The notes beneath the pieces were generated by a model, which was given only the letters and a program-made list of their open reading frames with translations, did no database searches and was not told the origin of the DNA. Source: Nitrososphaerota archaeon (GTDB lineage Archaea; Thermoproteota; EX4484-205; JAAOZO01). Taken from it: 34,893 nucleotides of DNA. The DNA lies in contig JAAOZO010000171.1 in NCBI GenBank assembly GCA_011605715.1, forward strand, positions 1 to 34,893, read 5' to 3'. Made by a program: the position numbers and the translations under genes. This document shows positions 8,487-34,071 of the stretch, piece by piece (position 1 is the stretch's first letter; each line of letters opens with the position of its first letter).

Positions 8487-8529
8487 GGTTAATTTCTTTG
8501 TAAGACTGATTTCAGCAAACAAAAATAGG

Positions 8530-9419: not shown

Positions 9420-9488
9420 AAGAATGACTCACATTTTCAGAGAAGAAGATTTAATAAGAACCCCCTATTTAATCTTAACACGTAAGTT

Positions 9489-10529: not shown

Positions 10530-10533
10530 TCTT

Positions 10534-11829
10534 TCAAGGTATAAGTCTGTTTTTATCTCTTGGATAGAGTGTAGTTTCTCTTATGTTGTTTTCTCCAGTA
10601 ATAATCATCATTAACCTATTGAATCCAATAGCCCAACCAGCATGCGGTGGCATGCCATAACTAAAGAACTTTAAATGTTCAGAAAAACTACTTAAATTGA
10701 GCCCCATTTTCGTTATTCTATTTTCTAACTTTTCTCTGTTTTCTTCTCGAGTCCCCCCAGAACAAATTTCAAGCTCGCTAAACATTAGGTCAAATGATTC
10801 TGTAGTTCCATCGTCTTTCACTTTTATGTAAAATGGCTTTGTATTTTCTGGCCAATCTGTTACAAAAAAGAATTTATCTTTTAAATCTTTAATTAGTTTT
10901 ATGTGCTCTGAAGAAATATCCTCACCATAATTTATTTTCCCTCCTTCTTTTTTTACCATGTTCACAACTTCTTTGTAGCTATAACTCTCTATTTCTTTGT
11001 CTTTGTATTCTAAGAATTTTTCATTTAGAACTTCCTTGTATTCTCCATCGAGCTTGTCAAGTTCCTTAGAAATCGTTCTAATCAAATTGGCAAGTATTTC
11101 CATAACATCATTATAGTCTGCAAAAGCAACTTCAATATCAAGAGAAACAAACTCATTTAAATGTCTGGTCGTATCAAATGGTTCAGCTCTAAAGAACGTA
11201 CCTATTTCAAAAACTCTTTCCAAGCCCATAGTAAGTTGTTCTTTGTAGAGCTGAGGGCTCTGAGCAAGAAACGCTTTTTTGTCGAAGTAATTTAGCTCAA
11301 ATAAGTTTGCTCCACCTTCCGTAGCAGTTGATATTATTCTTGGAGTAACAACTTCTACAAAACCTTTTTCGTAAAAGAATTCTCTTGTAATCTTTAAAAC
11401 TTCTGAGAAGAGCTTAAATATTTTTGCAGTTCTTGGTCTCATTAAGTCTATTGGTCTGTTATCGAGCCTTACATCTAAACTAGCGTTTATTTTTCCTCTA
11501 ATTTCTAGCGGTAGTGGGTGTTTTGATTTATTTAGTACTTCTATTTCTTTTGCGACAAGCTCAAAGCCTTTTTTTGCAACTTTGCTTTTTCGTATAGTTC
11601 CCTTTACTTTTACTACATCATTTTGGTTTATTTTCTCTACTAATCTTCCAATTTCTTCTGGAGATTCTTCAGTTTTCCAAATAACTTGTACAGAATCAGT
11701 ACAGTCCTTAATCTTTAAAAACTTTATCTTTCCTAGGTCTCTTGTGTCCTCGACCCATCCTGCAATCGTGGTTTCTTTACCTTCTGGTAGATTGGAAAGC
11801 TGATTTATGTAAAAGTCCTTATGCCTCAT
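10534..11829 (-). CDS. aspS: Aspartyl-tRNA synthetase, archaeal type (class IIb)
   Basis: 431 aa. N-terminal OB anticodon-binding domain, FRAEPFDTTRHLNEF (motif 2), GGTRE, and C-terminal GWAIGFNRLMMIITG..NIRETTLYPRDKNRLIP. Confidence 0.9.
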   Translation of the reverse strand: MRHKDFYINQLSNLPEGKETTIAGWVEDTRDLGKIKFLKIKDCTDSVQVIWKTEESPEEIGRLVEKINQNDVVKVKGTIRKSKVAKKGFELVAKEIEVLNKSKHPLPLEIRGKINASLDVRLDNRPIDLMRPRTAKIFKLFSEVLKITREFFYEKGFVEVVTPRIISTATEGGANLFELNYFDKKAFLAQSPQLYKEQLTMGLERVFEIGTFFRAEPFDTTRHLNEFVSLDIEVAFADYNDVMEILANLIRTISKELDKLDGEYKEVLNEKFLEYKDKEIESYSYKEVVNMVKKEGGKINYGEDISSEHIKLIKDLKDKFFFVTDWPENTKPFYIKVKDDGTTESFDLMFSELEICSGGTREENREKLENRITKMGLNLSSFSEHLKFFSYGMPPHAGWAIGFNRLMMIITGENNIRETTLYPRDKNRLIP

Positions 11830-12344
11830 TCTCCCGCCTTAACCTCTTCTAAAGATATTTCAATTTTCTCATTTAATATCTTAGATAAAACTTGACTAAT
11901 TTCTTTTTCATTAAACTTAAGTTTCCCCCTTATCCTAATTTCTTTTGCTTTACTTCCATCAGGAAGCCATAACTCTCTAATGTACAATACCTTAGCTGAG
12001 CTTCCAGCTATTTTTTCCATCAAAGTTCTTAAGTTCTCTTTTCTGTCAGTGACCACAACATCTTTCTTTGTTGCTTCTCTTACACGAGAAAGTAATAGGC
12101 TTAAAGCATCATACTTGGATTCAAGAATGTTTGCTTCATTAAAAATTAGAACGATGAGCTTGCTACTTTCTGCGCTTCCAATGTATTCAAGGTTCTCAAA
12201 CTCTTTCTTCTTACCTAATAACTCTAAAATTAACCTGCTTATCGTCACATCTGTAAAAGAAAACCTAGTATTGAGTTTTTCTTTACATTCTTGACAAAAA
12301 ATTTCCGTACTCAAGCAAATTTCATGAAATGGTGTTTTTACCAT
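11826..12344 (-). CDS. Conserved-looking protein with an N-terminal Cys cluster (possible zinc ribbon); function unknown
   Basis: 172 aa with an ATG start and an ATGA overlap with aspS, suggesting translational coupling. HEICLSTEIFCQECKEKL near the N-terminus. No GxxG KH motif was seen. Confidence 0.65.
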   Translation of the reverse strand: MVKTPFHEICLSTEIFCQECKEKLNTRFSFTDVTISRLILELLGKKKEFENLEYIGSAESSKLIVLIFNEANILESKYDALSLLLSRVREATKKDVVVTDRKENLRTLMEKIAGSSAKVLYIRELWLPDGSKAKEIRIRGKLKFNEKEISQVLSKILNEKIEISLEEVKAGE

Positions 12345-18109: not shown

Positions 18110-18922
18110 ATGGAGAAATTAGAATGTCTAGAGAATGACAGCAGCAATACTTTCTATACCGAAGAGAAAGAATTAGATAATTCTGTTTTTTCTTTCAATG
18201 ACCTCTCTTCTCATCACCTTCTGTCCCAGTACGACGTAGATGAGAAAATACGCCAATACACCCGTTTATTACTTGAAAAATTAAACTTACCTTTATCTAT
18301 GGACCTTGCTATATTTAAAACGTATTTAGAAATAAAGAAGAGCTTGCCTAAGAATAATGTAAACTCAGTAGCCTTACTGGCCTCACTGGTCGTCTTATAT
18401 TCAAAGTTTTACAACTACCCAAAAAACATAAGTGAGGTGATGGAAATAGTTAAAGATTTTGACCCAAAAATTAAAAAAGGACGTATCCTCAAATATATGT
18501 ATCTTATAAAATCTATCAATAAATCGTTTAACAATTATGTATGTCCAGTCTCTTTTATTGATATGATAATGAACAGACTTGAAGATAGAGGACTGATTTT
18601 TGTTAACCCTATGTCAAAGAAATTTGATTACAAAAGATCATTAATCTTAATCTCAAGCTACCTATTAAGCAAGCTAAAAGATAAAAATATAAGTAGTAAT
18701 CCGAGAGGCATTGCTGCTTGTTCAATTTATACTTCTAACATATTGATTGCAAAATATAAGATTTTTAAATGTAAACGCCTAACTCAAAAACATTTAGCTA
18801 TTGCTTCTAATTTAGCTGAATACACAATAAGGGAGAACTACGAAAAACATTTTTCTATGTTTGTGAAGAATCCTCCAGAAGATTTACTATTACATCTTTC
18901 TCTCCTTCTGTCTCAGAACTAA
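18110..18922 (+). CDS. Divergent TFB (TFIIB) paralog: two cyclin-like repeats, no N-terminal zinc ribbon or B-reader
   Basis: 270 aa. The second repeat PRGIAACSIYTSNILIA....LTQKHLAIASNLAEYTIRENYEKH matches the TFB core signature (P.GiAAAaiY.A....TQ.e.a....VtE.TIRnRYkE). The first repeat has SVALLASLVVLYSKFYNYPKNISEVMEIV. There is no CxxC...CxxC. Confidence 0.75.
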   Translation: MEKLECLENDSSNTFYTEEKELDNSVFSFNDLSSHHLLSQYDVDEKIRQYTRLLLEKLNLPLSMDLAIFKTYLEIKKSLPKNNVNSVALLASLVVLYSKFYNYPKNISEVMEIVKDFDPKIKKGRILKYMYLIKSINKSFNNYVCPVSFIDMIMNRLEDRGLIFVNPMSKKFDYKRSLILISSYLLSKLKDKNISSNPRGIAACSIYTSNILIAKYKIFKCKRLTQKHLAIASNLAEYTIRENYEKHFSMFVKNPPEDLLLHLSLLLSQN

Positions 18923-19319
18923 TGTAGAAGTATTGCTCTACCACTGTGATATTTATTTTATACTTTACCTGCATCATATAAGTTTCGTTACTCACCTTTA
19001 TGCTATTTATGCTAAATACATAGGTCACTCGAGTATCGTTCTTTGAAAACTTGTTTGCTACCTTATTAAAGATATCACCTACTATAGCCTGTAACTCAGA
19101 AGATTTTATCGTCTTGTTTTCAATCGAACCTATTTCTTCTTTTATCTCCCTGTCTGCACTTTGTTCATTATTTGAAACTTCATTCGTTTTTTCATTGAAT
19201 TTCTTTATGATATCAATACTTTTAAAAATGTTAGTAGCTTCTTTTACTACAAGTAGCACGATTAAAGCGTACAAAAAAGTAAATACAGTTAATGCAGGTA
19301 CAATGCCTAAAGGCTTCAT
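18855..19319 (-). CDS. N-terminally anchored (pilin-like or signal-anchor) protein, last gene of the peptidase operon
   Basis: 154 aa. MKPLG-IVPALTVFTFLYALIVLLVV hydrophobic N-terminus, then a polar, beta-rich region. The 3' end overlaps the convergent TFB-like gene by 68 nt. Confidence 0.6.
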   Translation of the reverse strand: MKPLGIVPALTVFTFLYALIVLLVVKEATNIFKSIDIIKKFNEKTNEVSNNEQSADREIKEEIGSIENKTIKSSELQAIVGDIFNKVANKFSKNDTRVTYVFSINSIKVSNETYMMQVKYKINITVVEQYFYISSETEGEKDVIVNLLEDSSQT

Positions 19320-19331
19320 TTTGCTAAGTCT

Positions 19332-19427
19332 TCAAAGTAAGATATATCCTCTTACGATGTGTTCCAAGATGAATAAAGTCAGCCACATTATCAAAGTTGC
19401 CAAACTCACATCTATCTCTTCATACAT
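19332..19427 (-). CDS. 31-aa hydrophobic sORF, a truncated paralog of the N-terminus of the 113-aa protein
   Basis: Not in the supplied track. MYEEIDVSLATLIMWLTLFILEHIVRGYILL resembles MEEIEFIGSILAWFLLCTTIGVLEMKLV (19580-19921 product). It packs tightly between neighbours. Confidence 0.4.
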   Translation of the reverse strand: MYEEIDVSLATLIMWLTLFILEHIVRGYILL

Positions 19428-19443
19428 TTTCTCACCTACTTGT

Positions 19444-19596
19444 TCATATACCTACAACCCTCTTTATAAGCTCCCCTAAAATTCTGTTTACCTCATAGTT
19501 AACCATCATGAGTCCAACCAAGTAAAATGAAAGTATTAGAACTGAAAATCCAATTTCAAGAATTCCTAGCTTACCCTTTTTAAAACTTCCTATCAA
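19444..19596 (-). CDS. 50-aa Flp-like pilin candidate (TTG start)
   Basis: Not in the supplied track. With TTG 19596: MIGSFKKGKLGILEIGFSVLILSFYLVGLMMVNYEVNRILGELIKRVVGI. It has a basic N-terminus, an L-E-I-G-F motif and a hydrophobic helix. It overlaps the upstream gene's 3' end by 17 nt. The only in-frame ATG (19509) would remove the hydrophobic segment. Confidence 0.5.
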   Translation of the reverse strand: MIGSFKKGKLGILEIGFSVLILSFYLVGLMMVNYEVNRILGELIKRVVGI

Positions 19597-19921
19597 GGAT
19601 AACTCCCTGTTCACTTATAGACACATTTACACTTCTATCAAAGAGAACAGTAACATTTTCGTAAAAAGGAGCACTTATTTGAATAGCTGACTCATTTATT
19701 TTTTCTATTTTAATAACTTCTGACCCAATTTTTGGCAGATTTATCCTGAATTCTACTTTTTTGTTTGCTCTTGTGATATAATTGATTTTTTCAAATAAAA
19801 TCTTTATCGTCTCTACTTCCTTTTTTTCATATGTAGAAACTAATTTCATTTCAAGAACTCCAATGGTCGTGCACAACAAAAACCATGCTAAGATTGAGCC
19901 AATAAACTCAATCTCTTCCAT
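19580..19921 (-). CDS. Pilin-like protein: hydrophobic N-terminal helix plus a beta-rich domain
   Basis: 113 aa. MEEIEFIGSILAWFLLCTTIGVL, then alternating beta-type sequence (VEFRINLPKIGSEVIKIEKI...VTVLFDRSVNVSI). Confidence 0.6.
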   Translation of the reverse strand: MEEIEFIGSILAWFLLCTTIGVLEMKLVSTYEKKEVETIKILFEKINYITRANKKVEFRINLPKIGSEVIKIEKINESAIQISAPFYENVTVLFDRSVNVSISEQGVILDRKF

Positions 19922-19927
19922 TTTTCA

Positions 19928-20086
19928 CTACCTTCCTAAAATTAATTTGTTTAAACTTACTTTAGCAAAAAGTTCTCCAAGTATTTTAACGATTTGAGAA
20001 AAATTTTTTGCAAAGAAATAAAGTATTAATGCTGAAATTAATCCTTCAATCATCATCGTCATCATCTTCTCCAATATCCTGCTCAT
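19928..20086 (-). CDS. 52-aa Flp-like pilin candidate
   Basis: Not in the supplied track. MSRILEKMMTMMIEGLISALILYFFAKNFSQIVKILGELFAKVSLNKLILGR. It shares I-E-G-L plus a hydrophobic helix plus ILGEL with the 19444-19596 product. It lies 5 nt after the peptidase gene and 6 nt before the next gene. Confidence 0.55.
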   Translation of the reverse strand: MSRILEKMMTMMIEGLISALILYFFAKNFSQIVKILGELFAKVSLNKLILGR

Positions 20087-20091
20087 TTTTC

Positions 20092-20682
20092 CTACAAAAA
20101 CATAGTATGTGAAAGGCTAGTTATAAGCACCAATGTTCCAAATAATGGAATAAACGGCACGTCAGACTTTTTTGATTTAACTTTTGGGAAAATTAGTGTA
20201 AAACTCCAAGTAAACGGAAGGGCAAATGTAACAATTTTAACAAGCCTTTTACTACTAGTTTTATTCTGCAGTTTTCTTAGGAAATGGATTCTAAGCAAGA
20301 GCGTGTACGTGTTCACATAAATTGGTTCTATTAGGCTAGTATCAAATTGTAAGTTCGTGGGAAATAAGCCCAACATTAGTCTTACCTTAAAAATACCTAC
20401 GCTTACTGGTTGTATAATTGCTAATGAAAACATGAAATCTGCAAATCCAGAATATCCAAGTATAAATTGAATACCTGAAATCAATGCAACCTTTAAAATA
20501 GAAAGTAAGTAGTCGAAAGTATTCTCCAATAAAATGCCTTTTATGAGTACGAGTATCAGACTTAATATAAAAAATATCACTAAAAAAATTGCAGAAACTT
20601 CTCTGTCTCTTATGTCTTCGTAGCTCATTATTATCCAAAGCAGTACCCAAATGAAAAGTAGTCCTTTTTCCAGCAACAACAT
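20092..20682 (-). CDS. Peptidase A24-family prepilin/preflagellin peptidase-like membrane protein (PibD/FlaK/TadV type)
   Basis: 196 aa, polytopic. MSYEDIRDREVS fits the first catalytic-Asp motif (y.D...r.vp). LGYSGFADFMFSL is a plausible second G-x-x-D motif. Confidence 0.7.
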   Translation of the reverse strand: MLLLEKGLLFIWVLLWIIMSYEDIRDREVSAIFLVIFFILSLILVLIKGILLENTFDYLLSILKVALISGIQFILGYSGFADFMFSLAIIQPVSVGIFKVRLMLGLFPTNLQFDTSLIEPIYVNTYTLLLRIHFLRKLQNKTSSKRLVKIVTFALPFTWSFTLIFPKVKSKKSDVPFIPLFGTLVLITSLSHTMFL

Positions 20683-20750: not shown

Positions 20751-20906
20751 ATGAAGCATGAGGATGCTATAATAGATGCTATAATAGACGAGATTTCAAA
20801 TTTAAAGAATGAGTTATCCATAGTAAAAAGAAGGCTTGATCTGTTACAAGGTTACATAATGAAATCTAAAGAGACTTCTCTAAATTCAGAAGAAGCTAAA
20901 AAATGA
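20751..20906 (+). CDS. 51-aa coiled-coil protein translationally coupled to the secretion ATPase
   Basis: Not in the supplied track. MKHEDAIIDAIIDEISNLKNELSIVKRRLDLLQGYIMKSKETSLNSEEAKK. ATGA overlap with the next gene. Confidence 0.5.
   Translation: MKHEDAIIDAIIDEISNLKNELSIVKRRLDLLQGYIMKSKETSLNSEEAKK
20763..20788 (+). repeat. Perfect 12-nt tandem duplication (gatgctataata x2, plus ga) inside the small coiled-coil ORF
   Basis: Read directly from the sequence. It encodes DAII-DAII. Confidence 0.9.
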
Positions 20907-22618
20907 GAATCAAAGAAATAAGAAGGTTTAAGAACCATTTATTAATTACTGTGCATGATAACTTTAATGAAAGTCTCGTAGATGAAATTCTTAACTATGT
21001 GATCTTTTATATGCGTTTTTTCAGGAATATAAGTTCTGTTGATGTAAAGTTTAATAATTACGAAGAAACTATAGTTGACAAAGCAATTTTATCTAAATGT
21101 TTAAATAAGGCGCGTCAAATTTCAAAGCTTGTTAAGACAATAGCGTTAAGATATAGAAGCAAACTCGAAGGTATTGACCTAAGTTATTTGTCAGTCTATC
21201 CGAATTTCGGTGAGCTTTATAACTTAAATAAGAATCCTAAGCAAGAAGTTCTTCTTGCTAACTCAAATTTTAGTATGGATTATGCTTGCAATGAAACTAT
21301 TGAGATTCCGAGCAGATTATACCACTTAGACGCTGTTTTAAAAGGTGGTGTGTACCACATCAAGTATAAAGATATTTTTGTAAAGAATATTTTGCTTGAT
21401 ACTTCGTATTTTCTTAGATGGGTTGTTGATGATCGTCTTCTTGAACCAAATAAGTTTAGTGATTTCATCGAATATAGGTATAAGTTTGCCATAAGGTATC
21501 TAAACAAAACCATCCAAAATCTTTCTACTCAATTAATTAGAAGTATAGCGATTCATTCTGTTTTTGTTTCAATGGGTTTACCTTCCCTTTTTCCCCTCTT
21601 TTTAGATAAAAGTATCAACGAAATCTACCTTGATGACTTAGGAAAGACGGTATATGTTGAGCATGCTGATTATGGAAGGTTGCCTACTAATATCAAACCA
21701 AGGGATAAGGAAGTTAGAGCTCTTCTTTCAGCCCTAAGAAGGAACAGTGGCCAAGAGTTAAGTCTTTCAAATCCTTCTATTAAGGGTGATCTCTCGTTTT
21801 ATAATTCTATTTTAAGAGTTTCTTTCGATTCTTTTCCTCTAGTTAACAACTTCTCCTTTGACATAAGAAAGTTGAGCAAAGAGTCAAAAAACTTATCAAG
21901 TCTTGTTCAAAGTGGTACCCTAGATAAAGTAACGGCATCTTTCCTTGTGAATTTGTTGAGAATTCGTGCCAACATTTCTATAGTTGGAGAGCCTGGAAGT
22001 GGCAAAACGACGTTACTTGCTTCAATTTTGAATTTTGTCCCCAAAAACTGGAGAGTCATAATTTTAGAGGATGTTCCGGAGATTTCTTACTCTTTCTCTG
22101 GGTCAAATTTTTGTTTAAAGCTATTTACTGATCCTTTTGAGTCTAAGACTAAAGTAAGAAAAAAGTCAGAAGAAATAGTTAAGCTACTTCACAGGAATCC
22201 AACTTATGTAGTTCTTGGTGAGTTACAGTACGAAGACCACTTCAAGTCTCTTTTTTATGCTTTATCTTCAGGGTTAAGAGTTATTCATACTTCTCACGCG
22301 CCAAGTATCGCTGGATTCATTGATAGAGTGGTAAATGTTTACAAAATTTCTAGTTCTTTAGTCTCATACCTTGATGTTGTTTTAGAAATGAAGAAAATAG
22401 AAAATGACGGTAAGGTTATACGAAGATTAAATTCTATCGGTTTTGTGAATATTTCAAGTACAGATCCTTATGAACTAAAAGTTGTAAACTTAAATAACAA
22501 TAATTCAGATACTCTAGAAGGTATTTACCAGAATTGGATCAAAATGATATTAGTAAAGAGGAACGAAACTAACTACATTAATAATTTTTGTTTTTTGCAA
22601 AATAGTGAGCTATCTTGA
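20903..22618 (+). CDS. Type II/IV secretion-family ATPase (FlaI/TadA/PilB/VirB11-like) with a long divergent N-terminal region
   Basis: 571 aa. Walker A VGEPGSGKTTLL, Asp box VIILEDVPEI, Walker B PTYVVLGELQYED, His box RVIHTSHAPS. The first roughly 350 aa have no motif I recognise. Confidence 0.8.
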   Translation: MRIKEIRRFKNHLLITVHDNFNESLVDEILNYVIFYMRFFRNISSVDVKFNNYEETIVDKAILSKCLNKARQISKLVKTIALRYRSKLEGIDLSYLSVYPNFGELYNLNKNPKQEVLLANSNFSMDYACNETIEIPSRLYHLDAVLKGGVYHIKYKDIFVKNILLDTSYFLRWVVDDRLLEPNKFSDFIEYRYKFAIRYLNKTIQNLSTQLIRSIAIHSVFVSMGLPSLFPLFLDKSINEIYLDDLGKTVYVEHADYGRLPTNIKPRDKEVRALLSALRRNSGQELSLSNPSIKGDLSFYNSILRVSFDSFPLVNNFSFDIRKLSKESKNLSSLVQSGTLDKVTASFLVNLLRIRANISIVGEPGSGKTTLLASILNFVPKNWRVIILEDVPEISYSFSGSNFCLKLFTDPFESKTKVRKKSEEIVKLLHRNPTYVVLGELQYEDHFKSLFYALSSGLRVIHTSHAPSIAGFIDRVVNVYKISSSLVSYLDVVLEMKKIENDGKVIRRLNSIGFVNISSTDPYELKVVNLNNNNSDTLEGIYQNWIKMILVKRNETNYINNFCFLQNSELS

Positions 22619-23154
22619 AAATAAATAGGCTTATCAACTTAGTACAAGGCTATCTCAAACCTATCTTTGATAAACTGAGTAACAGAAGACTAGGTCTTTC
22701 AACTTTGCAACATACGTTGTATGTATCCTATAGAATAGTTGGCGAAAATGAAATTCATGCAGCTAGACATGTACTAAAGCTTAATGATGAAAGTGCTACA
22801 TATAAAAAATTTATTTATGCTATAGGCTCTGGGCTCGATGCTGATAAATACTTAACATTAGAGCTAAACAAAACAGAGCAATACCTAAAGTTTAAGTCGA
22901 GTATTTATCAAAGGATTTCTTTTATTGAGAGCTATAATAGAAATATGTACCTGAGAAGTGTAGATAGGCTTAAAGTACTTTTAACAATATTTACTTTTTT
23001 ATCATTTATCATACCGTTTGTATTTATTTTTCTCTCTTTCTTTCTCTTCAAGAATTATGTTGACTTTTTATCTTACTTTATCCTACTTTATCCAATTTTT
23101 CTTTCATTTTTTCTTAGGTTAGCAAGAGTTGAAGATAAATATGTCATCAAATAA
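22615..23154 (+). CDS. T2SSF/TadB-like platform protein, first half of a split FlaJ/TadC
   Basis: 179 aa. TTG start in a TTGA overlap with the ATPase stop. A roughly 120-aa helical soluble region followed by two strongly hydrophobic segments. Confidence 0.55.
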   Translation: MKINRLINLVQGYLKPIFDKLSNRRLGLSTLQHTLYVSYRIVGENEIHAARHVLKLNDESATYKKFIYAIGSGLDADKYLTLELNKTEQYLKFKSSIYQRISFIESYNRNMYLRSVDRLKVLLTIFTFLSFIIPFVFIFLSFFLFKNYVDFLSYFILLYPIFLSFFLRLARVEDKYVIK

Positions 23155-23929
23155 GATCTTCGCAACAGTTATTCTTCTGCTATCTTCTGTTGTTGCTCAA
23201 ACTTTACTCAGTGGAAAGAACTTTAACATAGTTATCATCTCTTTCTTTTCGCTCCTTATTTCTTTGTTGTTAAGAAACGAAAGTCCAAAAGTTAACGTTA
23301 AAGATAGAGAAAAACTCCTTGATTACTTTTCAAGCACAATATCTAGAAGTAAAGAAGGACTTTTCCAAGAGGCATCATTTTTTAAAGATTCAAAAAATCA
23401 AAGAATTAAATATCATAAAAAGCTTGTCTACTTGGTTTCGAATGGCTTTCCAATAGAAGATGCTCTTCTGAAGAGTATTTCAGAAAGTAAAGACCCAATT
23501 CTCGTATTCGTATCAGAGCAGTTGCGCTATGGAAGAATAAGCTCTAACGAAGTTGATAAAGTGATTGGGATGTGGCTTGATAACTTAGGCTACATTCATG
23601 AAACTAATAGGCTCTTGTCTGAGTTTGAAAATAGAGTAACACTCTTAAATTACATTCTGTTTGTCTCCTTTGGCTTTATATCAGCATCGCTTAGATCCTT
23701 TGGATCTCTCATAAAAAATTCTGTAAACTATTTATTCTTTAGCAACTTGAGTTATAATATCGATGCAATAACGCTATCTCTTCTCATGTTTTCTATTTCA
23801 ATATTTACTGTTTCTTCATCTTACTTTAATCTAAGTAATAAAACTATTAAGTTTGCTACTTCTTGTTTTTTGTTTTTAGTTTCCTACCTACTTTTTGGAA
23901 TAATCTTCTTTTATGCAGGCAATCTTTGA
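23141..23929 (+). CDS. T2SSF/TadC-like platform protein, second half
   Basis: The ORF opens at TTG 23129; ATG 23141 (MSSNKIF...) overlaps the upstream stop. N-terminal TM hairpin, a cytoplasmic helical domain (LVSNGFPIEDALLKSISESKDPILVFVSEQLRYG, GspF-like) and C-terminal TM segments. Confidence 0.6.
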   Translation: MSSNKIFATVILLLSSVVAQTLLSGKNFNIVIISFFSLLISLLLRNESPKVNVKDREKLLDYFSSTISRSKEGLFQEASFFKDSKNQRIKYHKKLVYLVSNGFPIEDALLKSISESKDPILVFVSEQLRYGRISSNEVDKVIGMWLDNLGYIHETNRLLSEFENRVTLLNYILFVSFGFISASLRSFGSLIKNSVNYLFFSNLSYNIDAITLSLLMFSISIFTVSSSYFNLSNKTIKFATSCFLFLVSYLLFGIIFFYAGNL

Positions 23930-23986
23930 AAATATTGGTGCTTAAATAGCTTTAGGCCTCATTATATTTTGGAGCTGATCGAAAGT

Positions 23987-24172
23987 ATGAAAAAGCTTAG
24001 AGCTTCTCAACTAATAGAAGAAGGTCTCCTAATAGTCCTCGCCTTAGTGATGATAGGTGCTGTCTTCGGAGTATACAAATCCATAATAGACGGGATCTCA
24101 AACTTCTTTAAAAACATAGTAGATAGCATAGGTAAGGTTGCGTACGAGCTGTTTGGTTGGGCGTATCCTTAA
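23987..24172 (+). CDS. Flp-like small pilin (class III-type signal peptide candidate)
   Basis: The ORF opens at TTG 23969; ATG 23987 gives MKKLRASQLIEEGLLIVLALVMIGAVFGVYKS.... The basic leader, then S-Q-L-I-E-E-G-L-L-I, resembles the bacterial Flp G/xTxIEYGLI processing motif. Confidence 0.65.
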   Translation: MKKLRASQLIEEGLLIVLALVMIGAVFGVYKSIIDGISNFFKNIVDSIGKVAYELFGWAYP

Positions 24173-24175
24173 AAA

Positions 24176-25960
24176 TTGAAGATAAAGAATTTCTCTTTAC
24201 CAGAAGATTTTACAGTTGTTTTATCTGCTGCTATTCTTACGCTCGTCTTTGTGTTCAGCAAGTTCCCTCTACTTTTTCAACAAGGGTTCGTCGCATCTTA
24301 TAGGTTTTTATTTTTGTTTATTGTTTTCATTTCTATTTTTTCAGTTTTCTTGATGTACCAATACTTGCATCTAAATAGGTCTAACAGCAATGTAACTTAT
24401 TCTTTGCTAGAAAATGATTTGGTTTTGTTAAAATCTGACTCAAGAAAATACTTCTTGCAGCTATTTAAGTTAGAGTGTCATGACTTAAGTAAACCTAGTC
24501 AATTTGGTCAATTTTTTGATTTTCTTTATAAGTCTGGTATTAGTATAAAGTTAGTTGCAAACATTTACAACCAATCAAATAACTATCGAAATTTCGAAAT
24601 ATTCATACTCGCTTATGAAGAAATTCAAGGTGACTTTAAACAAGATTACATTCCTATAGTTGAAGAGAAATTCAATTCTCTTCTTATCGCTTCTAAAGCT
24701 TACTCCAACGTTATTAGTTTGACTAAACTAGAAGGCTCTTCTCTCTTAAATAGCTTAGACCTATACTTCCTTAACAAAAAAGAAATAAACCATAATTCAG
24801 AAGAAGAACAAAAAAATTCAGGTGAAGTTTTAGCTTCATTGTTTTTACCTTCTCCAAGTAGTGATTTTGTTAATGGCATTTCTTTTATGTCTAAAGAAAA
24901 AGATAGTGAAAGCGGAGTAATTCTCGGAGAGCAAATATATAAAGGAGAACCTTGTGGTACATTTGTCTTGCCAGTTGATTCATTATTCAAGCATTCAGTT
25001 ATAGTTGGAATAACAGGATCTGGTAAGTCAACTACAAATAAGCAAATTTTAAAGGAACTCAGCAGGCTTGGATTTCACTTTTTACTGTTTGATTTTCATG
25101 ATGAGTATGACCAAGAGTTCTCAAACTCCACTTCGTCTTACATTTTTAGATTTTCAGGAGAAGCTTCTATTGACTTTTTATCACCGTTTGAAATGAAAGA
25201 TTTTTCAAATCATGTTTCTATAGTAACTGATGTCTTTAACAACGTATACTCCTTTTCACCATCTCAATTTTTTGTTTTTCGTGATGTTTTATCCTCAGAA
25301 TTAGCTTATTCAAAAATTAATAGGGTTTCACCAACAATGAGAGGCGTAGTAGATAGACTAGAGAATTATGAGCCAAAGTCGTTTTATGAGAATGAGACAA
25401 AATTTTCGTTATTGCGAAGATTAAAGCCCCTAAGTGAAGGCGAAGGTAGTAAAATATTCGCAATTTCTAATTTGATGAAAATTGACAGTATTCTTAACAA
25501 GAATGTAATTTTAAAAGTCTCTGATATAAAAGATTCTGACTTAAGAAAGCTTACAGTTTCTCTTATACTTGCTTTAGTGTATGAGTACAGGCTGACAAAC
25601 GGGCCAGACAAAATTGGACATTTTATTTCTTTAGAGGAAGCCCAAAACTTTGTCCCGTTTAGAAACAGAACAGAAGAAGCTTCAATATATGAAAAAATGT
25701 TTTTTGAAATGAGGAAGTATAGAGAATCTCTTATTTTAATTGCTCAATTCCCTTCTCAGATTTATCCTGACTTGCTTAAGTCTTGTGAAGTTAAGGTTGT
25801 CCATAGGCTTTTTTCAGCTGGGGATGCATCCTTAATTGAAGATATATTGGGAATAGATGAAAAAATACTTGAACAACTTAAATCTTTGCCGGTAGGTCGT
25901 GTTCTCGTTTTTATTCCTTCTAGTAGAAGTCCTATTACCGTTCAGGTACGTAGGGATTAG
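24176..25960 (+). CDS. Membrane-anchored FtsK/HerA-superfamily ATPase (DUF87/HerA-, VirB4/CedB-like)
   Basis: 594 aa. TTG start 3 nt after the pilin stop. Two N-terminal TM segments (VVLSAAILTLVFVF; FLFLFIVFISIFSVFLMY). Walker A HSVIVGITGSGKSTT, HerA-like LLFDFHDEY, Walker B-like HFISLEEAQNFVP, and a LILIAQFPSQI block. Confidence 0.75.
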   Translation: MKIKNFSLPEDFTVVLSAAILTLVFVFSKFPLLFQQGFVASYRFLFLFIVFISIFSVFLMYQYLHLNRSNSNVTYSLLENDLVLLKSDSRKYFLQLFKLECHDLSKPSQFGQFFDFLYKSGISIKLVANIYNQSNNYRNFEIFILAYEEIQGDFKQDYIPIVEEKFNSLLIASKAYSNVISLTKLEGSSLLNSLDLYFLNKKEINHNSEEEQKNSGEVLASLFLPSPSSDFVNGISFMSKEKDSESGVILGEQIYKGEPCGTFVLPVDSLFKHSVIVGITGSGKSTTNKQILKELSRLGFHFLLFDFHDEYDQEFSNSTSSYIFRFSGEASIDFLSPFEMKDFSNHVSIVTDVFNNVYSFSPSQFFVFRDVLSSELAYSKINRVSPTMRGVVDRLENYEPKSFYENETKFSLLRRLKPLSEGEGSKIFAISNLMKIDSILNKNVILKVSDIKDSDLRKLTVSLILALVYEYRLTNGPDKIGHFISLEEAQNFVPFRNRTEEASIYEKMFFEMRKYRESLILIAQFPSQIYPDLLKSCEVKVVHRLFSAGDASLIEDILGIDEKILEQLKSLPVGRVLVFIPSSRSPITVQVRRD

Positions 25961-26192
25961 TTTTACTTTCTGCCAACTTATTTAAAAATTTAATTTTTTT
26001 CTCTAGTTCAACTGCGTTCATTCTTTCCATGCTTATTACATTTTTCTTCGTTACCTTATATCCACAGAAGGGGCAAATTCTATAGTGACTTTTTTCGTTT
26101 ATTCCCATAAACTTGCCACATTTAGGACATTTCACTATGAGAAATTTATCCTTCGACAACTTTAAAAAGCATATTAAGTCGTTGCTTATCAT
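25935..26192 (-). CDS. Small zinc-ribbon protein (DUF1922-like pattern)
   Basis: KFLIVKCPKCGKFMGINEKSHYRICPFCGYKV plus a helical tail. The start is ambiguous: ATG 26192 overlaps the upstream gene by 47 nt, and in-frame TTG or GTG (26135) starts lie nearer its stop. The 3' end overlaps the convergent HerA-like gene by 26 nt. Confidence 0.6.
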   Translation of the reverse strand: MISNDLICFLKLSKDKFLIVKCPKCGKFMGINEKSHYRICPFCGYKVTKKNVISMERMNAVELEKKIKFLNKLAESKTNPYVPER

Positions 26193-26733
26193 TTAAATAT
26201 TTTTTCATCCAATCGATTTTCTTTCCAGGCTTAAATTTATCCTTTATTATACCCTGCGCAATTTTCTTAGGACTTCTATTTGTAGTATCAATTTCGATTA
26301 CATCTCTCTCAAACATTTCATGTGCTTCCTGTGATATTTGATTAAGAAATTCGCTCAGTACATTTTCTTTAGTTTTTTCAATTCCATACTTCTTGAGGAT
26401 CCTCTTATACAATATCAATGGTTCACATCTTAAAACTATTACTCTTTTTGTACCCCCTCGAACTAAGTTTGCTAGCTCATAAGAATGTATCCAATCTACT
26501 GCTATGTTTGTTTGAGTTGTTCTAACTATTTTTTTCACCGTATTTCTCATCTTTTTCACTAAGACAACAAAAGAATCTGTTTTTCTGTCATACCTTGAAT
26601 ACAGTTTCTTGTCTTTTACTAACTTTCCAACGTCTAAATGAGCAAAATTAAACTTTTCTAGTTCTTTACAAAGTGTAGACTTTCCTACTCCTGGCGTACC
26701 ACTTATAAATAATACCTGTTTCTTTTGGGGCAT
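26146..26733 (-). CDS. Fap7/adenylate kinase 6-like NTPase (small-subunit ribosome maturation factor)
   Basis: 195 aa. VLFISGTPGVGKSTLCKEL P-loop, then HLDVGKLVKDKKLYSRYDRKTDSFVV, which parallels the AK6/Fap7 pattern (..NVGDLA.EE.LY.GYDEE.D..I.DE). Confidence 0.75.
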   Translation of the reverse strand: MPQKKQVLFISGTPGVGKSTLCKELEKFNFAHLDVGKLVKDKKLYSRYDRKTDSFVVLVKKMRNTVKKIVRTTQTNIAVDWIHSYELANLVRGGTKRVIVLRCEPLILYKRILKKYGIEKTKENVLSEFLNQISQEAHEMFERDVIEIDTTNRSPKKIAQGIIKDKFKPGKKIDWMKKYLNDKQRLNMLFKVVEG

Positions 26734-27062: not shown

Positions 27063-28706
27063 TTATCGCCTTTCTGCTCCCTTTTCTTTCTTTTCAGGCA
27101 ACTTTAGTGTTAAGAACATATCGTCTACTCTTAGTAGTGTCGAAGCAAGTTCTGTAGCTACATTCAGCATAAGCTTTACAGATTTTATCGGTTCAATTAT
27201 TCCAGCTTCTTCAACGTCTACTACCTTTCTGCTAAGCGCATCTATTCCAAACAACTTGTCCTTGGTCTTAACGTTCTTGGCTCTTAAGTCACCTATAGTT
27301 TTTGTTACAGGCATGCCACTGTTTTCTACTATTGCTCCAGCTAGGTCAAACAGTGCTTCTGAAAATCCTTCTATTACTAGACTTATTTCTCCTCCTTTTT
27401 GCATTCCATAGTCTTTAAGTGCGACAGCCATGCCAACTATGTCTGCTACGCCACTTGGTACGTATTTCTCATCTTCATAGAAGTTCGCAACACATTGTAA
27501 CCCTTTCTTAACTACCCTTTCGTATTCCTTAGTTAGCTCCTTACTGACTCCTCTTATTAGTATACTTACTGATTTACTTTTCTTTACATCTTCTACGACA
27601 ACTACTTTTTCCGTAGCTTCGTACTTCCTTTCCTCTACTAAGTTTGCTTCTCCAAGCGTTTTTTCGGAGATGTCGGTATAGTCGCTAACTATTCTTGCTC
27701 CCGTCGCTTCTGCAAGCTTTTCTAAGTCCGATCTCTTTGCATTCTTTACTGCTAGTACTCCCGCTTTTGCAAGCGCTGCAGCGGCTTTATCATCTATCGC
27801 TTTTTGAGAAATAAGTACGTTAGCTCCACTTTGTATTATTTTTTCAACTTTTTCGGTTACAGATCTTCTTTCTTCTTCTTTTAGCTTTAGGATTTCTTCT
27901 GGACTTTTAAATTCTAGTTCAGAAGAAATTTCTGTCTTTTTAACTTCCAAAGGAAAGTCTATAAGAGCTATTCTCGCTCCCGTTATCCTTTTAGGCATAT
28001 TTGGATGCGCAACCTCTTTATCTATAATTATTCCATTTATGAAACTTGTCTCAAAAGCAGAGCCACCTGTTTTGCTGACTATTGCAACATCGTCTATGTC
28101 TATCTTCTTCTTTCCATTAACTTCACGGGTCACTAGTTTTGCTGCCTGGAGTATTGCGTTTACTACATTCTCATAGTATGCTAGTTCTGACCTACCTATA
28201 GAGGGTAGTACTACTGTCCTAATCATGTTCTTTAATACTGTATCATATTCTTCAAGTCTTGGCTTTTTAGAAATGCTTTCTATATACTCATTTAAGAATT
28301 TTCTTGCTTCTTCATATCCTAGAGCTATTGTTGTAGGATGTATTCCCTTTTTGTAGTACGTTACTCCTGTTTCGATTAACTTAGAAGCCAAATAAATCAT
28401 TCTGTTTGTTCCATCCCCAACCATTTTGTCTAGGTTTTTAGCAGCTTCGATGTAAAGCTTTCCAACTGGATGTTCAATGTTTGCTTCAGAGAGAATCGTT
28501 ACTCCGTTCTTTGTATAAGTTATATCCCCAAAGCTTCCTACCAACATTTTGTTAAAACCTGAAGGTCCTAGCGCCGTTTTAGTTATTTCTTCTAATACTA
28601 TACTAACAGTTAAAGTGTTAGCTAATGCCTCATCCCCCGTTCTTCTAGCAACATTTTCTTTCATAACATAAACAGGCTGCCCACTAGCCTCCACAGGAAT
28701 CGCCAT
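27063..28706 (-). CDS. ths: Thermosome subunit (group II chaperonin)
   Basis: 547 aa. TLGPSGFNKMLV, GDGTN, VSKTGGSA, ISQKAIDD.A...LAKAGVLAV, VVVEDVK..KSVSILIRG, and EPIKSVKLMLNVATELASTLLRVDD. Confidence 0.95.
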   Translation of the reverse strand: MAIPVEASGQPVYVMKENVARRTGDEALANTLTVSIVLEEITKTALGPSGFNKMLVGSFGDITYTKNGVTILSEANIEHPVGKLYIEAAKNLDKMVGDGTNRMIYLASKLIETGVTYYKKGIHPTTIALGYEEARKFLNEYIESISKKPRLEEYDTVLKNMIRTVVLPSIGRSELAYYENVVNAILQAAKLVTREVNGKKKIDIDDVAIVSKTGGSAFETSFINGIIIDKEVAHPNMPKRITGARIALIDFPLEVKKTEISSELEFKSPEEILKLKEEERRSVTEKVEKIIQSGANVLISQKAIDDKAAAALAKAGVLAVKNAKRSDLEKLAEATGARIVSDYTDISEKTLGEANLVEERKYEATEKVVVVEDVKKSKSVSILIRGVSKELTKEYERVVKKGLQCVANFYEDEKYVPSGVADIVGMAVALKDYGMQKGGEISLVIEGFSEALFDLAGAIVENSGMPVTKTIGDLRAKNVKTKDKLFGIDALSRKVVDVEEAGIIEPIKSVKLMLNVATELASTLLRVDDMFLTLKLPEKKEKGAERR

Positions 28707-28821
28707 TTTTTAATTACACCCCCTTTCCCTTTACTCTATAAAGGCTCAATAAAAACTTTCCTTTTTATTATTAAAAGAAATAGGAAAACTTAAAAACCTT
28801 TTCTTAGTCTCTTTGCCTAAG

Positions 28822-29067
28822 TTGGGCAAGATCTACGATTCGAAAGTAAAAAGAATAGGGGAGAAGATCCTTATGCTTTACTCAAATGAGCTTTCCACAG
28901 ATTTTTATCAAAATAAAAAGCTCATATCTTCCATAGTGAACACGAGCTCCAAATTCTTACTAAATAAAATAACTGGTTATGTTACTTCTCAAGTGAAGAA
29001 AAAAGCAACAGTTGAAGGGGAAGAGATTAGCAAACCAGAGGAAACAGAAAATGAAGAAGCAGCATGA
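28822..29067 (+). CDS. rps17e: 30S ribosomal protein S17e
   Basis: The ORF opens at TTG 28813. The second TTG (28822) gives MGKIYDSKVKRIGEKILMLYSNELSTDFYQNKKLI, matching the canonical archaeal S17e N-terminus (MG.I....iKR...E....y......DF..NK). ...LLNKITGYVT is also typical. Confidence 0.85.
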   Translation: MGKIYDSKVKRIGEKILMLYSNELSTDFYQNKKLISSIVNTSSKFLLNKITGYVTSQVKKKATVEGEEISKPEETENEEAA

Positions 29068-29487: not shown

Positions 29488-30090
29488 TTAAAACATATTT
29501 TCCGTTCTTTTCTTTAATGTACTGGTAAGCACTCTGTCTACAATATAAGGTTCAAAACCAATATTGATCAAATCTTCTCTTATTTTCTCTACAGGCTTGT
29601 TTTTCTCTTTTTCTATTAGTTTTAAAATTGTTTCTCTTCTTTCATGAGGAAAAACAATCCATTTTTTTGTTGTCCTAACATAAAAAGTCGGAATCGTCTC
29701 ACTGTGGGGCTTATAAAATATGGTCAAGCTATCGACTTCTTTAGCTCCTGCGTTTTTCAAATACTCAAGAACTTTCTTCAAGCTTTTTCCACTATCTGCA
29801 ACATCATCTATAACAAGTAGCCTTAATCCATTCACACTAGTCTTTAAGTCATCTTTAATTACAGGCTCAGTTGCAGTTTTTTTGATGTCTTCATAAAACA
29901 CAACCCTTATAACAAAAAGGTTTTCTTGCTCTAGCTCATCTGACAAAATTCTAAGCGGGACTAGACCCCCCCTACTTATTCCAACAAACGCGTCGTAACT
30001 TTTTTTGTTTCTCCTTATCATGTCTGCAGCCTCCAAACATAAGCTGTAAAATGTTTGCCAATCTATTATTTCAAACTCTGATTCGTTCAT
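29488..30090 (-). CDS. Type I phosphoribosyltransferase (purine PRT-like)
   Basis: 200 aa. PRPP-binding loop LLVIDDVADSGKSL, preceded by FVGISRGGLVPLRILS. Confidence 0.8.
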   Translation of the reverse strand: MNESEFEIIDWQTFYSLCLEAADMIRRNKKSYDAFVGISRGGLVPLRILSDELEQENLFVIRVVFYEDIKKTATEPVIKDDLKTSVNGLRLLVIDDVADSGKSLKKVLEYLKNAGAKEVDSLTIFYKPHSETIPTFYVRTTKKWIVFPHERRETILKLIEKEKNKPVEKIREDLINIGFEPYIVDRVLTSTLKKRTENMF

Positions 30091-32307: not shown

Positions 32308-34071
32308 ATGGTTAGAGTCGCTGTTATCGACAAAAAGTCATGCAGACCTAAAGATTGCGGTCATCCCTGTAGGAAGAGTTGTCCTGTTGTAAGGACCGGT
32401 CAGGATGCAATTTACTTCCTTGACGAAAACTTACCACCAACAATAGATGAAGCTATTTGCATAGGTTGTGGAATTTGTGTAAGAAAATGTCCCTTTAATG
32501 CTATCTACATTGTTAATCTTCCGGATCAGCTTGAAAAAGAAGCTTTTCATAGATATGGCCAAAATGGTTTTAAACTTTATAGGTTTCCGGAGATTAAGCC
32601 TCAAAGTGTTAACGTGATAATAGGTCAAAATGGTATGGGTAAGTCAACTATTGCTAAAATACTTTCTGGTGAACTAATACCAAACTTAGGCGACCCCAAT
32701 TCTAAGCCACCAATTGAGCAAGTTATAGACCGATTGAAAGGAACTACTTCTTCAGAGATTCTCGAAAATATATTCAAAAAAAAGTTTACAGTAGCCTTTA
32801 AGCCTCAACATGTCGAACTTCTACCCTCGGTTTTTGGTGGAAGTGTAAAAGAAGCGCTTTCAAAGTATGAGGGTAGCAGGTACTATGGTGAAGTAGTTAA
32901 TTCAATGAAATTGTCTACCCTCTTTGAACGTAAGTTGAATCAGTTAAGTGGTGGAGAACTACAAAAACTTGCAATAGCTTTGGCGCTACTAAAAGATACT
33001 GACATAATTGTACTAGATGAACCTGCAAGTTATTTAGACGTATTACAAAGGTTACTTGTCTCAAGGTTACTTTTTTCATTTAAAGATAAGGGAAAGACTC
33101 TAATCGTCATAGAGCATGACCTTGGAATGATTGATTACTTGGCAGATTATGTCTCAATAATATATGGTGAACCTGGTGCATACGGCATTGTTTCAAGGTT
33201 ATTGTCTGCTAGAGTTGGTATAAACTCCTACTTAAACGGGTTTCTTAAAGCTGAAAACACTCAAATAAGACCCTTCGAAATAAAGTTTGAATCAAGACCG
33301 CCTCCAGAGAAAAGAGACTTGTCTGTAGCTTTTAAGTGGGTAAAAGACGAGTTTAAGCTAAACGGGTTTACTCTTACAATCGAGGGTGGAGAAGCTTACA
33401 GAGGCGAAGTAATAGGCATAGTGGGCCAAAATGGTATAGGAAAAACAACTTTTGTAAGGAGAATCGTAGAAAGCTATTTTGGTGTTGAAAGTCAGCAAAT
33501 AAGTTACAAACCTCAACTAATAACAAACTTATTCAAAGGAAAAACAGTAAAGGAAGTCCTAGAGGAAAAATTCGGAAGTTCCAATTTTCCTTCTTGGATT
33601 GAAACTGAACTCTTAAAGCCACTGAGATTAAATAAACTCATGGAAAGATCGACAGAAACCTTAAGTGGAGGTGAACTCCAAGCTTTAGCAGTGGCTTCCT
33701 CTTTGATCTCGAATAGTAACTTTTATTTTATTGATGAACCATGTTCCTTTCTCGATGTAGAGCAAAGAGTAACTGTTCAAAGAATGATAAGAAGGTTAAC
33801 AGAAATTAAAGCTGCTACAACGTTTGTGGTAGAGCATGACATACTATTTATAGACTTTGTTTCAGATCGCCTTATAGTAGTAGATGGAGAGCCTGGAGTT
33901 CATGGATACGTTTCTTCTCCCAAGTCCATGAAAGATGGGATGAACGAGTTTTTGTCGAAGCTATCGATAACTTTTAGAAGAGATGTAGATACAAATAGAC
34001 CAAGAATAAATAAGCCTGGATCAAGAACCGATCTAGAACAAAAACAATTAGGCCAATACTACTATACATAA
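32308..34071 (+). CDS. abce1: ABCE1/RLI ribosome-recycling ATPase (2x4Fe-4S domain plus twin NBDs)
   Basis: 587 aa. N-terminal CRPKDCGHPCRKSCPV and CIGCGICVRKCPF clusters. Two NBDs (GQNGMGKST / LSGGELQ; GQNGIGKTT / LSGGELQ). C-terminal ...RPRINKPGS..D..QK..G.YYY. Confidence 0.95.
   Translation: MVRVAVIDKKSCRPKDCGHPCRKSCPVVRTGQDAIYFLDENLPPTIDEAICIGCGICVRKCPFNAIYIVNLPDQLEKEAFHRYGQNGFKLYRFPEIKPQSVNVIIGQNGMGKSTIAKILSGELIPNLGDPNSKPPIEQVIDRLKGTTSSEILENIFKKKFTVAFKPQHVELLPSVFGGSVKEALSKYEGSRYYGEVVNSMKLSTLFERKLNQLSGGELQKLAIALALLKDTDIIVLDEPASYLDVLQRLLVSRLLFSFKDKGKTLIVIEHDLGMIDYLADYVSIIYGEPGAYGIVSRLLSARVGINSYLNGFLKAENTQIRPFEIKFESRPPPEKRDLSVAFKWVKDEFKLNGFTLTIEGGEAYRGEVIGIVGQNGIGKTTFVRRIVESYFGVESQQISYKPQLITNLFKGKTVKEVLEEKFGSSNFPSWIETELLKPLRLNKLMERSTETLSGGELQALAVASSLISNSNFYFIDEPCSFLDVEQRVTVQRMIRRLTEIKAATTFVVEHDILFIDFVSDRLIVVDGEPGVHGYVSSPKSMKDGMNEFLSKLSITFRRDVDTNRPRINKPGSRTDLEQKQLGQYYYT

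Follow-up and report, generated by a model that had tools for sequence, protein, structure and literature searches.

CedD was recognised in 2025 as a membrane-bound protein (Saci_0667 / SiRe_1715) with a transmembrane (TM) region, an N-domain and an ATPase domain like that of HerA; it is essential for DNA import by the Ced system (PMC11823120, PMC11868833). Strains of S. acidocaldarius and Sa. islandicus without cedD no longer import DNA, and DNA exchange in these Sulfolobales also needs type IV (Ups) pili (PMC11823120, PMC11868833). CedD is induced by ultraviolet light and by TFB3, which was shown only for Saci_0667 and SiRe_1715. Here we describe a CedD-like ATPase encoded in 34,893 nucleotides (nt) of a Nitrososphaerota archaeon (contig JAAOZO010000171.1, assembly GCA_011605715.1); this whole stretch is called the window below. 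Its gene ends an operon which, judged by a T2SSE ATPase and a prepilin motif, is predicted to encode a type-IV-pilus-like system. With a probability of roughly 55%, the protein is a membrane-anchored, probably hexameric translocase of the HerA clade and the CedD family that works with the pilus machine and probably moves DNA. From homology and gene order we infer the hexamer, the DNA substrate, the direction of transport and the physical coupling to the pilus. DNA is the proposed substrate because HerA-clade enzymes are DNA translocases, CedD is needed for import and Ced exchange needs Ups pili; by analogy with CedD, import is more likely than export.

The window ATPase resembles CedD in its TM segments, its homologous N-domain and its HerA-type ATPase domain, and in a neighbourhood with AAA_18, thermosome, S17e and RLI genes. 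It differs in that it falls into a separate clade and lies inside a type-IV-pilus-like operon, whereas pilus genes were absent from the three CedD-side loci examined. TedD of the Thermoproteales adjoins VirB2/VirB6/VirB4-like Ted genes (PMC11823120), unlike the window ATPase. CedB, TedB and VirB4 are likewise membrane-associated FtsK-HerA ATPases that work with a pilus, a VirB11-family ATPase co-occurs with them and their C-terminal domains superpose on the window protein; however, their sequence affinity to it is far lower than that of HerA or CedD, and their VirB2-like pilin contrasts with the Flp-like pilin with class III signal peptide found here. HerA of the HerA-NurA-Mre11-Rad50 system belongs to the same ATPase-core clade and gave the best structural and PDB-sequence match, but the window ATPase has a membrane hairpin, another N-domain and no NurA/Mre11/Rad50 operon. 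FtsK/SpoIIIE and VirD4-type proteins share the layout of an N-terminal TM anchor, a linker and a hexameric DNA pump at the membrane; they are distant in sequence, and the window protein has two TM helices rather than four and lacks the gamma domain.

The window ATPase matched Pfam PF01935 (DUF87) with 51.6 bits against a cut-off of 23.2 (E=1.7e-13), and Walker A and Walker B were both present. This places it in the FtsK-HerA superfamily and bears out the HerA/DUF87 core that a preliminary description of this DNA, made from the sequence without database searches, had read. Among the NCBIfam models, CedD (NF053655, 'DNA-translocating ATPase CedD') was the best by far, with 160 bits (E=8.2e-47) over residues 268-592 only, and the next family scored at most 50 bits. 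The CedD model was again the best one for five further operon-linked members (154-190 bits), while the true CedD P0085 scored 745.6 bits (labels beginning with P denote compared proteins, those with L compared loci). The HerA equivalogs NF040937 and NF040819 gave 40.2 and 20.6 bits against cut-offs of 800 and 970, HerA_antiphage gave 49.9 bits against 800, and the PADLOC defence HerA models stayed at or below 75 bits, under the CedD score. VirB4 models, including TIGR00929, were absent among the NCBIfam matches at E<=0.1. When the family profile was compared with PDB sequences, Sulfolobus HerA matched at 2e-46, VirB4 at 6.6e-19, DotL at 9e-8 and FtsK at 4e-7. In the Foldseek search against PDB, the top match was the hexameric DNA translocase HerA of Sulfolobus (4d2i, E=3.7e-18), followed by defence-type HerAs; the best single-domain superpositions were those of the DndH C-domain and the VirB4 C-terminal domain (4ag5), with a TM-score of 0.74 each.

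The N-domain of the pilus-linked clade aligned with that of the CedD clade by hhalign (probability 94.9%, E=4.2e-8, window residues 79-185 with CedD residues 63-167). At least one N-terminal TM segment was predicted in 18 of 29 pilus-linked and 38 of 41 CedD-side representatives, and two segments in 14 and 26. When a neighbour-joining (NJ) tree was drawn for the ATPase core, the window protein grouped in one clade with every operon-linked relative, and CedD and its relatives formed the sister clade. These results place the core in the HerA clade of the FtsK-HerA superfamily, rather than in the VirB4 clade, and assign the protein to the CedD family in the broad sense, as a distinct subfamily and not a CedD equivalog. 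The family assignment follows from the CedD model being the best one, the N-domain homology, the TM anchor in both groups and the chromosomal position; the subfamily appears, with moderate support, to be sister to Sulfolobales CedD. The preliminary description, which had compared the protein with VirB4, TrbE and CedB, is refined in that the nearest characterised relative is CedD, at 160 bits against at most 50 for the others. Its view that the protein is not a soluble DNA-repair HerA agrees with the low scores of the HerA equivalogs. The profile search A2 of a set of 5.8 billion proteins returned the known orthologues and mostly bacterial or unassigned DUF87 proteins, several of them ~1000 aa long, with no new archaeal relatives. 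Beyond the archaeal orthologues, DUF87 proteins of 900-1090 amino acids (aa) occur in bacteria and metagenomes (P0009, P0012-P0023, P0178-P0183), most of them with TrwB_AAD_bind; they have only the ATPase core in common with the window ATPase, at 20-25% identity.

The start of the open reading frame (ORF) was examined next to the pilin gene. The pilin ORF stops with TAA at 24170-24172, and AAA follows before the TTG at 24176, leaving a gap of 3 nt. This TTG is the sole ATG, GTG or TTG codon from the pilin stop to the first hydrophobic helix, and the next in-frame ATG encodes Met60, within helix 2. The N-terminal region is kept in orthologues of 50-91% identity, and the ratio of nonsynonymous to synonymous substitution rates (dN/dS) of codons 2-68 was 0.24 relative to L006 and 0.35 relative to L007, which indicates purifying selection. 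These two closest relatives also start with TTG, while the genes of L001 and L003 start with ATG and overlap the pilin gene. The N-terminus of the ATPase is translated. The 594-aa ORF with a TTG start 3 nt behind the pilin gene, and the need for this non-AUG start to include the TM segments, had been correctly described, and a start at the internal Met, named there as a weakness of the reading, would fall inside helix 2. The pilin and ATPase ORFs (23969-25960) share one reading frame, with TAA AAA between them. A read-through or fusion of the two was rejected; the shared frame looks coincidental because the L001 and L003 genes overlap or differ in frame.

Kyte-Doolittle analysis with a 19-residue window gave maxima of 2.14 (residues 14-32) and 2.40 (residues 44-62), compared to the usual threshold of 1.6. 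The AlphaFold2 model, built from a 94-sequence alignment after an 8-sequence alignment had given an unusable mean predicted local distance difference test (pLDDT) score of 50, had a pLDDT of 87 and helices at residues 10-35 and 40-68. The two hydrophobic helices noted earlier in the first ~65 aa were thus recovered by both methods, and the TM segments are conserved. A TM hairpin of this kind would leave the N-terminus and the ATPase domain both in the cytoplasm. The stretch of about 200 aa in which no motif had been recognised is present, and AlphaFold2 refined it into a folded alpha/beta domain (residues 74-198) and a disordered linker (residues 202-236). The window ATPase therefore has the CedD-type architecture of TM segments, N-domain and HerA-like ATPase, as seen by AlphaFold2, Kyte-Doolittle analysis and hhalign. 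In the ATPase domain, the model places a beta-hairpin before the P-loop core. Walker A (HSVIVGITGSGKSTT) spans G278-T287, with GITGSGKS at 25007-25030, and Walker B lies in SLEEAQNFVP with E487/E488, with HFISLEEA at 25619-25642. LLFDFHDEY occupies residues 303-311, and LILIAQFPSQI is also found, so that all four motifs quoted in the preliminary description are in the translation. In the 94-member family alignment, G278, G281, G283, K284 and E488 were invariant, and R513, K514 and Q524 were near-invariant. The catalytic motifs of a HerA-type ATPase are intact.

The association of the ATPase with pilus genes was followed through other genomes. A scan of GTDB with one genome per species yielded 18 archaeal loci, six of them named Candidatus Brockarchaeota and the rest carrying phylum-level or loose names. 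In all 17 of these loci with upstream sequence, tblastn found a pilin directly upstream of the ATPase and a T2SSE ATPase 2-3.5 kb upstream. The identity of the pilin across Brockarchaeota loci was 53-97%, and that of the two ATPases was 33-43% in distant loci. A pilin directly upstream and a T2SSE ATPase at the same distance were likewise seen in L001, L003, L025, L027, L028, L030 and L035, and the junctions between genes range from small overlaps to gaps of 14-15 nt. An exhaustive profile search returned 177 cluster representatives at E<=1e-30. Five distant relatives (P0036, P0038, P0042, P0048 and P0054; ~22-27% identical) all end the same pilus operon, and flanking TFB-like, Lsm and AAA_18 genes are common to all five loci. 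These results, with the pilin-ATPase pair and the entire pilus-type operon kept in 17 of 17 loci and five distant lineages, strongly support the earlier proposal that the ATPase acts with the filament machinery, a functional link drawn from gene order.

In the CedD-side locus L034 (6017-8944), only a TFB-like gene and a gene for a coiled-coil protein of 65 aa come before that of P0076 (647 aa). This arrangement looks like the pattern expected from simple deletion of the pilus genes (ATPase, platform, pilin). In L036, a metagenome-assembled genome (MAG) of Asgardarchaeia, genes for a TFB-like protein, for a related T2SSE ATPase and for two membrane proteins adjoin Lsm and S17e genes (6960-11859), and no pilin or CedD-like gene was called there. 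The T2SSE ATPase has relatives in Asgard MAGs more generally, and the split between TACK and Asgard may be younger than the module for pilus assembly and its setting on the chromosome.

The operon of the window consists, in order, of genes for a coiled-coil protein, the FlaI-type ATPase, two platform-like membrane proteins, the pilin and the CedD-like ATPase (Table 1). Positional counterparts of the coiled-coil protein, 50-65 aa long, are present in L001, L003 and L030, and in L034 the counterpart lies directly 5' of the CedD-like gene. The FlaI-type ATPase matched PF00437 with 60.8 bits against a cut-off of 24.9, and the NCBIfam models FlaI and VirB11 with E=1.7e-28 and 1.3e-19; its orthologues additionally carry PF27713. 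The two platform candidates are weakly homologous to each other (hhalign 73.5%, E=2.9e-5), and the larger one has an NGxPxExA motif in alignment A5. Neither gave a Pfam match, including T2SSF/PilC/FlaJ, or an informative PDB sequence match.

The pilin has a basic leader, an A/G site and Glu at +5, and its predicted cleavage is KKLRA/SQLIEEGLL (MKKLRA/SQLIEEGLLIVLALVMIGAV, with the slash at the cleavage site). The mature pilin of 55 aa would consist of a single hydrophobic helix and, behind it, a short amphipathic one that ends in LFGW. The motif [KR][GA]/[SV]Q[LI]xEE[GA]LL ... LFG[WF] recurs in eight lineages, L001, L003, L025, L027, L028, L030 and L035 among them; no Pfam match was obtained, and the assignment as a prepilin is at the level of this motif. 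No other protein of the cluster is conserved as well as the pilin, which has 53-63% identity where the two ATPases have 33-43%; this is unusual for a major pilin. A TATA-like box is predicted ~20 nt ahead of the pilin ATG.

Divergent from the operon lies a second unit. Its 196-aa membrane protein has D23 and a C-terminal VPFIP that are invariant in alignment A6, and D84 in GFAD at FlaK-like spacing. The positional counterpart in L030 passes Peptidase_A24 (PF01478) with 28.0 bits against 26.5. In the window protein the canonical GxGD is absent, with GFAD instead, and no Pfam match was found; it may be a very divergent candidate peptidase or one of altered specificity. In the proteins of the four small ORFs beyond it, an acidic residue at the N-terminus comes before a hydrophobic helix, e.g., MSRILEKMMTMMIEGLISALIL and MEEIEFIGSILAWFLL. 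They are conserved by tblastn in L001, L006 and L007, and counterpart sets with LEKxL or SExIEF N-termini were found in L003, L025, L027, L030 and L035.

This gene set resembles Tad/Flp and Epd-like pili in its tiny pilin with Glu at +5, its secretion ATPase, its candidate split platform (cf. TadB, TadC) and its candidate prepilin peptidase. The idea that a pilus works with a DNA motor in the cytoplasm is shared with competence pili (ComG with ComFA/ComEC); ComFA belongs to the DEAD-box helicases and not to the FtsK-HerA superfamily. We know of no Tad, Epd or Com locus with a HerA/CedD-type ATPase, and literature searches for one were also negative. ArlH (FlaH) is similarly a second RecA-fold ATPase in an archaeal operon derived from type IV pili and acts with a FlaI-type motor; however, it is KaiC-like, belongs to another ATPase family, is soluble and has no translocase pore.

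Table 1. Coordinates of the features discussed, in positions of the window.
Feature	Position	Strand	Basis
CedD-like membrane-anchored HerA-clade ATPase, 594 aa, TTG start, last operon gene	24176..25960	+	DUF87, CedD model, AlphaFold2, HerA/VirB4 structural matches
Two-TM-helix hairpin anchor, residues 10-68	24203..24379	+	Kyte-Doolittle peaks, AlphaFold2, TM counts in relatives, dN/dS
Alpha/beta N-terminal domain, residues 74-198, homologous to CedD N-domain	24395..24769	+	AlphaFold2 pLDDT mostly >85; hhalign
Linker, acidic and serine-rich, residues 202-236, probably disordered	24779..24883	+	pLDDT <50; poor conservation in alignment A1
HerA-type P-loop ATPase domain, residues 247-591	24914..25948	+	Invariant motifs, Foldseek
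Coiled-coil protein, 51 aa, first operon gene, 4-nt overlap with FlaI-type ATPase start	20751..20906	+	ORF
FlaI/VirB11-type (T2SSE) pilus-assembly ATPase, 571 aa	20903..22618	+	PF00437 E=1.2e-16
Membrane protein, 179 aa, candidate platform (first half)	22615..23154	+	Position; cytoplasmic helical region and two C-terminal TM helices
Polytopic membrane protein, 266 aa, candidate platform (second half)	23129..23929	+	Position kept in all examined loci
Small Flp-like type IV pilin, 61 aa from ATG 23987 (ORF opens at TTG 23969)	23987..24172	+	Prepilin motif
Polytopic membrane protein, 196 aa, candidate divergent prepilin peptidase (A24-like)	20092..20682	-	Position, conserved residues
Four small ORFs (154, 56, 113, 52 aa), candidate minor pilins, leader very short or none	18855..20086	-	N-termini
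Divergent TFB (TFIIB-like) paralogue	18110..18922	+	NCBIfam TFIIB E=2e-4, second cyclin repeat
AAA_18 kinase gene	26146-26733		
Thermosome gene	27063-28706		
S17e gene	28813-29067		
PRTase gene	29488-30090		
RLI gene	32308-34071		

Downstream of the operon, the order in the window is CedD-like gene, Zn-ribbon protein gene, AAA_18, thermosome, S17e, PRTase and RLI. In L033, which encodes the CedD-like P0092, the CedD-like gene is followed in the same order by AAA_18, thermosome, S17e, PRTase and RLI, and in L031, which encodes the true CedD, cedD lies between the S17e and thermosome genes, with RLI nearby. The shared position beside AAA_18, thermosome, S17e and RLI makes the window ATPase a likely positional orthologue of CedD. 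The 85-aa Zn-ribbon protein (25935-26192, minus strand; A2L_zn_ribbon E=5e-6) is encoded antisense, overlapping the 3' end of the CedD-like gene by 26 nt and the AAA_18 gene by 47 nt; it is kept in L001, L006 and L007, and a DUF1922 protein takes its place in L026. The earlier statement that NurA, Mre11 and Rad50 are missing held among the scanned window ORFs of at least 110 aa, and no Sir2 or DUF4297 effectors lie beside the ATPase. A gene for a KaiC/RadB-like ATPase with an N-terminal Zn ribbon (7110-7931, minus strand) and a RadA gene (Rad51 family, E=1e-86; 9489-10529, plus strand) lie ~14-17 kb upstream of the CedD-like gene, with no link to the cluster established; RadA is also near L001. 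A plasmid origin was rejected: tblastn against 72,556 plasmids gave only ATPase cores of 22-25% identity on bacterial plasmids, and housekeeping genes flank the locus.

A TFB-like gene flanks the pilus/CedD-like cluster in every lineage examined. Positional counterparts were found in L001, L003, L025 (1272-2210), L028 (2858-3772), L030, L034 (6017-6832) and the Asgard locus L036 (6960-7991), where the gene is immediately 5' of the T2SSE ATPase. On the Sulfolobales-type contig L031, a 172-aa Zn-ribbon TFB fragment (TFB3-like; 10602-11120), the thermosome gene and cedD stand in a row, in agreement with the literature, where tfb3 is saci_0665 and cedD is saci_0667; TFB3 activates cedD in Sulfolobales. 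The window TFB-like protein is without a Zn ribbon. Its orthology with Sulfolobales TFB3 could not be shown, since only the Zn ribbon aligns (E=0.001, in one comparison). The TFB paralogue is a possible dedicated regulator of the cluster, of which its membership is uncertain.

Several results weigh against a DNA-moving CedD-family translocase at the pilus. The 160 bits of the window ATPase miss the CedD equivalog cut-off of 600 bits, so functional equivalence is not assured. The operon-linked relatives P0036 and P0042 lack a TM anchor, and the split of verified members into pilus-linked and CedD-side groups was recovered in 62 of 100 NJ bootstraps, a moderate support. No CedA/VirB6-like channel, CedA1/VirB2-like pilin or CedB was found in the operon, the window or the loci of ~20 kb, and no DNA-binding or DNA-processing gene, relaxase and ParA-like genes included, was found in the cluster. 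This last absence also suits an explanation that we regard as unlikely but take the most seriously of the alternatives, namely that the ATPase is a second pilus motor which moves no DNA. It would extract or insert pilin as VirB4 does, drive retraction (to our knowledge, archaea have no PilT) or regulate the FlaI-type ATPase in the manner of ArlH. VirB4 and VirB11 are partners in building the pilus of bacterial type IV secretion systems, and here a VirB11/FlaI-family ATPase is co-encoded, the ATPase gene stays closely linked to the pilin gene in all lineages examined, and the TM-score of the VirB4 C-terminal domain is as high as that of any other single-domain match. On the other hand, the core sequence is much nearer to HerA and CedD than to VirB4, and the sole characterised close relative works in DNA import. 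Moreover, the CedD-side relatives keep their chromosomal position without pilus genes, which argues that the ATPase has a function independent of this pilus.

A donor-side role, in which a chromosomal conjugation-like device would feed DNA outward through the ATPase as a VirD4-like coupling protein, seems improbable. VirD4-type coupling proteins, too, have a pair of TM helices at the N-terminus ahead of a P-loop motor, precomputed Pfam gives PF10412 (TrwB_AAD_bind) for the orthologue P0007, and a VirD4-like role for CedD was proposed in the microLife paper. Yet the PF10412 match of the window ATPase, 19.7 bits, stays under the Pfam cut-off of 20.5, the family profile scores structures of coupling proteins weakly (DotL 9e-8, HerA 2e-46), the cluster has no relaxase or ParA-like gene, and deletion of CedD hits import, not export (PMC11868833). 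Less probable still is an incidental adjacency, with a HerA-type ATPase of DNA repair, chromosome segregation or anti-phage defence that happens to lie beside a pilus operon. HerA is the top structural match, defence-type HerA models reach 75 bits, and the locus is part of the core chromosome with RadA ~14 kb off; but the gene order is kept over a divergence of 22-43% identity, with genes that overlap or nearly abut, the HerA repair models reach only 20-40 bits against cut-offs of 800-970, and a membrane anchor is atypical of repair HerA. Since the synteny is this deep, genes overlap, and neither NurA/Mre11/Rad50 partners nor Sir2/DUF4297 effectors lie nearby, a repair or defence role is unlikely.

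If the window ATPase is a CedD-like translocase that works with the pilus, the system could operate as follows. The mature pilin and the minor pilin-like proteins would be put together into a thin filament of the Flp type by the FlaI-type ATPase, the pair of platform-like proteins and the peptidase-like protein, and this filament would touch another cell or free DNA. The CedD-like ring would sit at the inner face of the membrane beside the pilus base, held by twelve TM helices (two per subunit) and the N-domain, and would spend ATP to pull DNA across the membrane, most likely inward as for CedD. The weak TTG start 3 nt behind the highly conserved pilin gene may keep the copy number of the motor low relative to that of the pilin.

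No paper was found that connects type IV pilus operons of archaea with a HerA/CedD-type ATPase, and the searches for Brockarchaeota pili returned no description, with one unrelated paper only. The two CedD papers cover Crenarchaeota only, with no mention of a pilus linkage or of the thermosome neighbourhood, and a census of archaeal type IV pili, a study of the TFF superfamily and a 'dark matter' survey name HerA only for classification or for viruses. As far as the literature could be searched, a link of this ATPase to a pilus operon appears undescribed, while the CedD protein family itself is known.

The passage of DNA across the archaeal membrane is poorly understood, and the partners and mechanism of CedD are open questions. 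The operon, deeply conserved in hot-spring Brockarchaeota and related archaea, is a concrete candidate for a pilus-coupled DNA-transport machine outside the Sulfolobales. It also gives the CedD-like protein a minimal set of candidate partners: the 55-aa pilin, both platform-like proteins and the FlaI-type ATPase. It also provides a genomic link between type IV pilus genes and Ced-type translocases, whose cooperation is known functionally, not genetically, in Sulfolobus. Tentatively, and with less confidence than in the translocase itself, we suggest that the ancestral partner of CedD was a type-IV-pilus-like machine, not the VirB2/VirB6-like Ced apparatus, and that the operon represents an unrecognised hybrid machine for DNA transfer or uptake that is widespread in uncultivated Thermoproteota. 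If this is true, the hybrid would unite a type IV pilus, a membrane-anchored DNA pump of the HerA clade and a dedicated TFB paralogue. The tfb3-thermosome-cedD arrangement would then be a remnant of pilus loss, which would offer an evolutionary explanation of why a lone cedD stands beside the thermosome gene and tfb3 in Sulfolobales.

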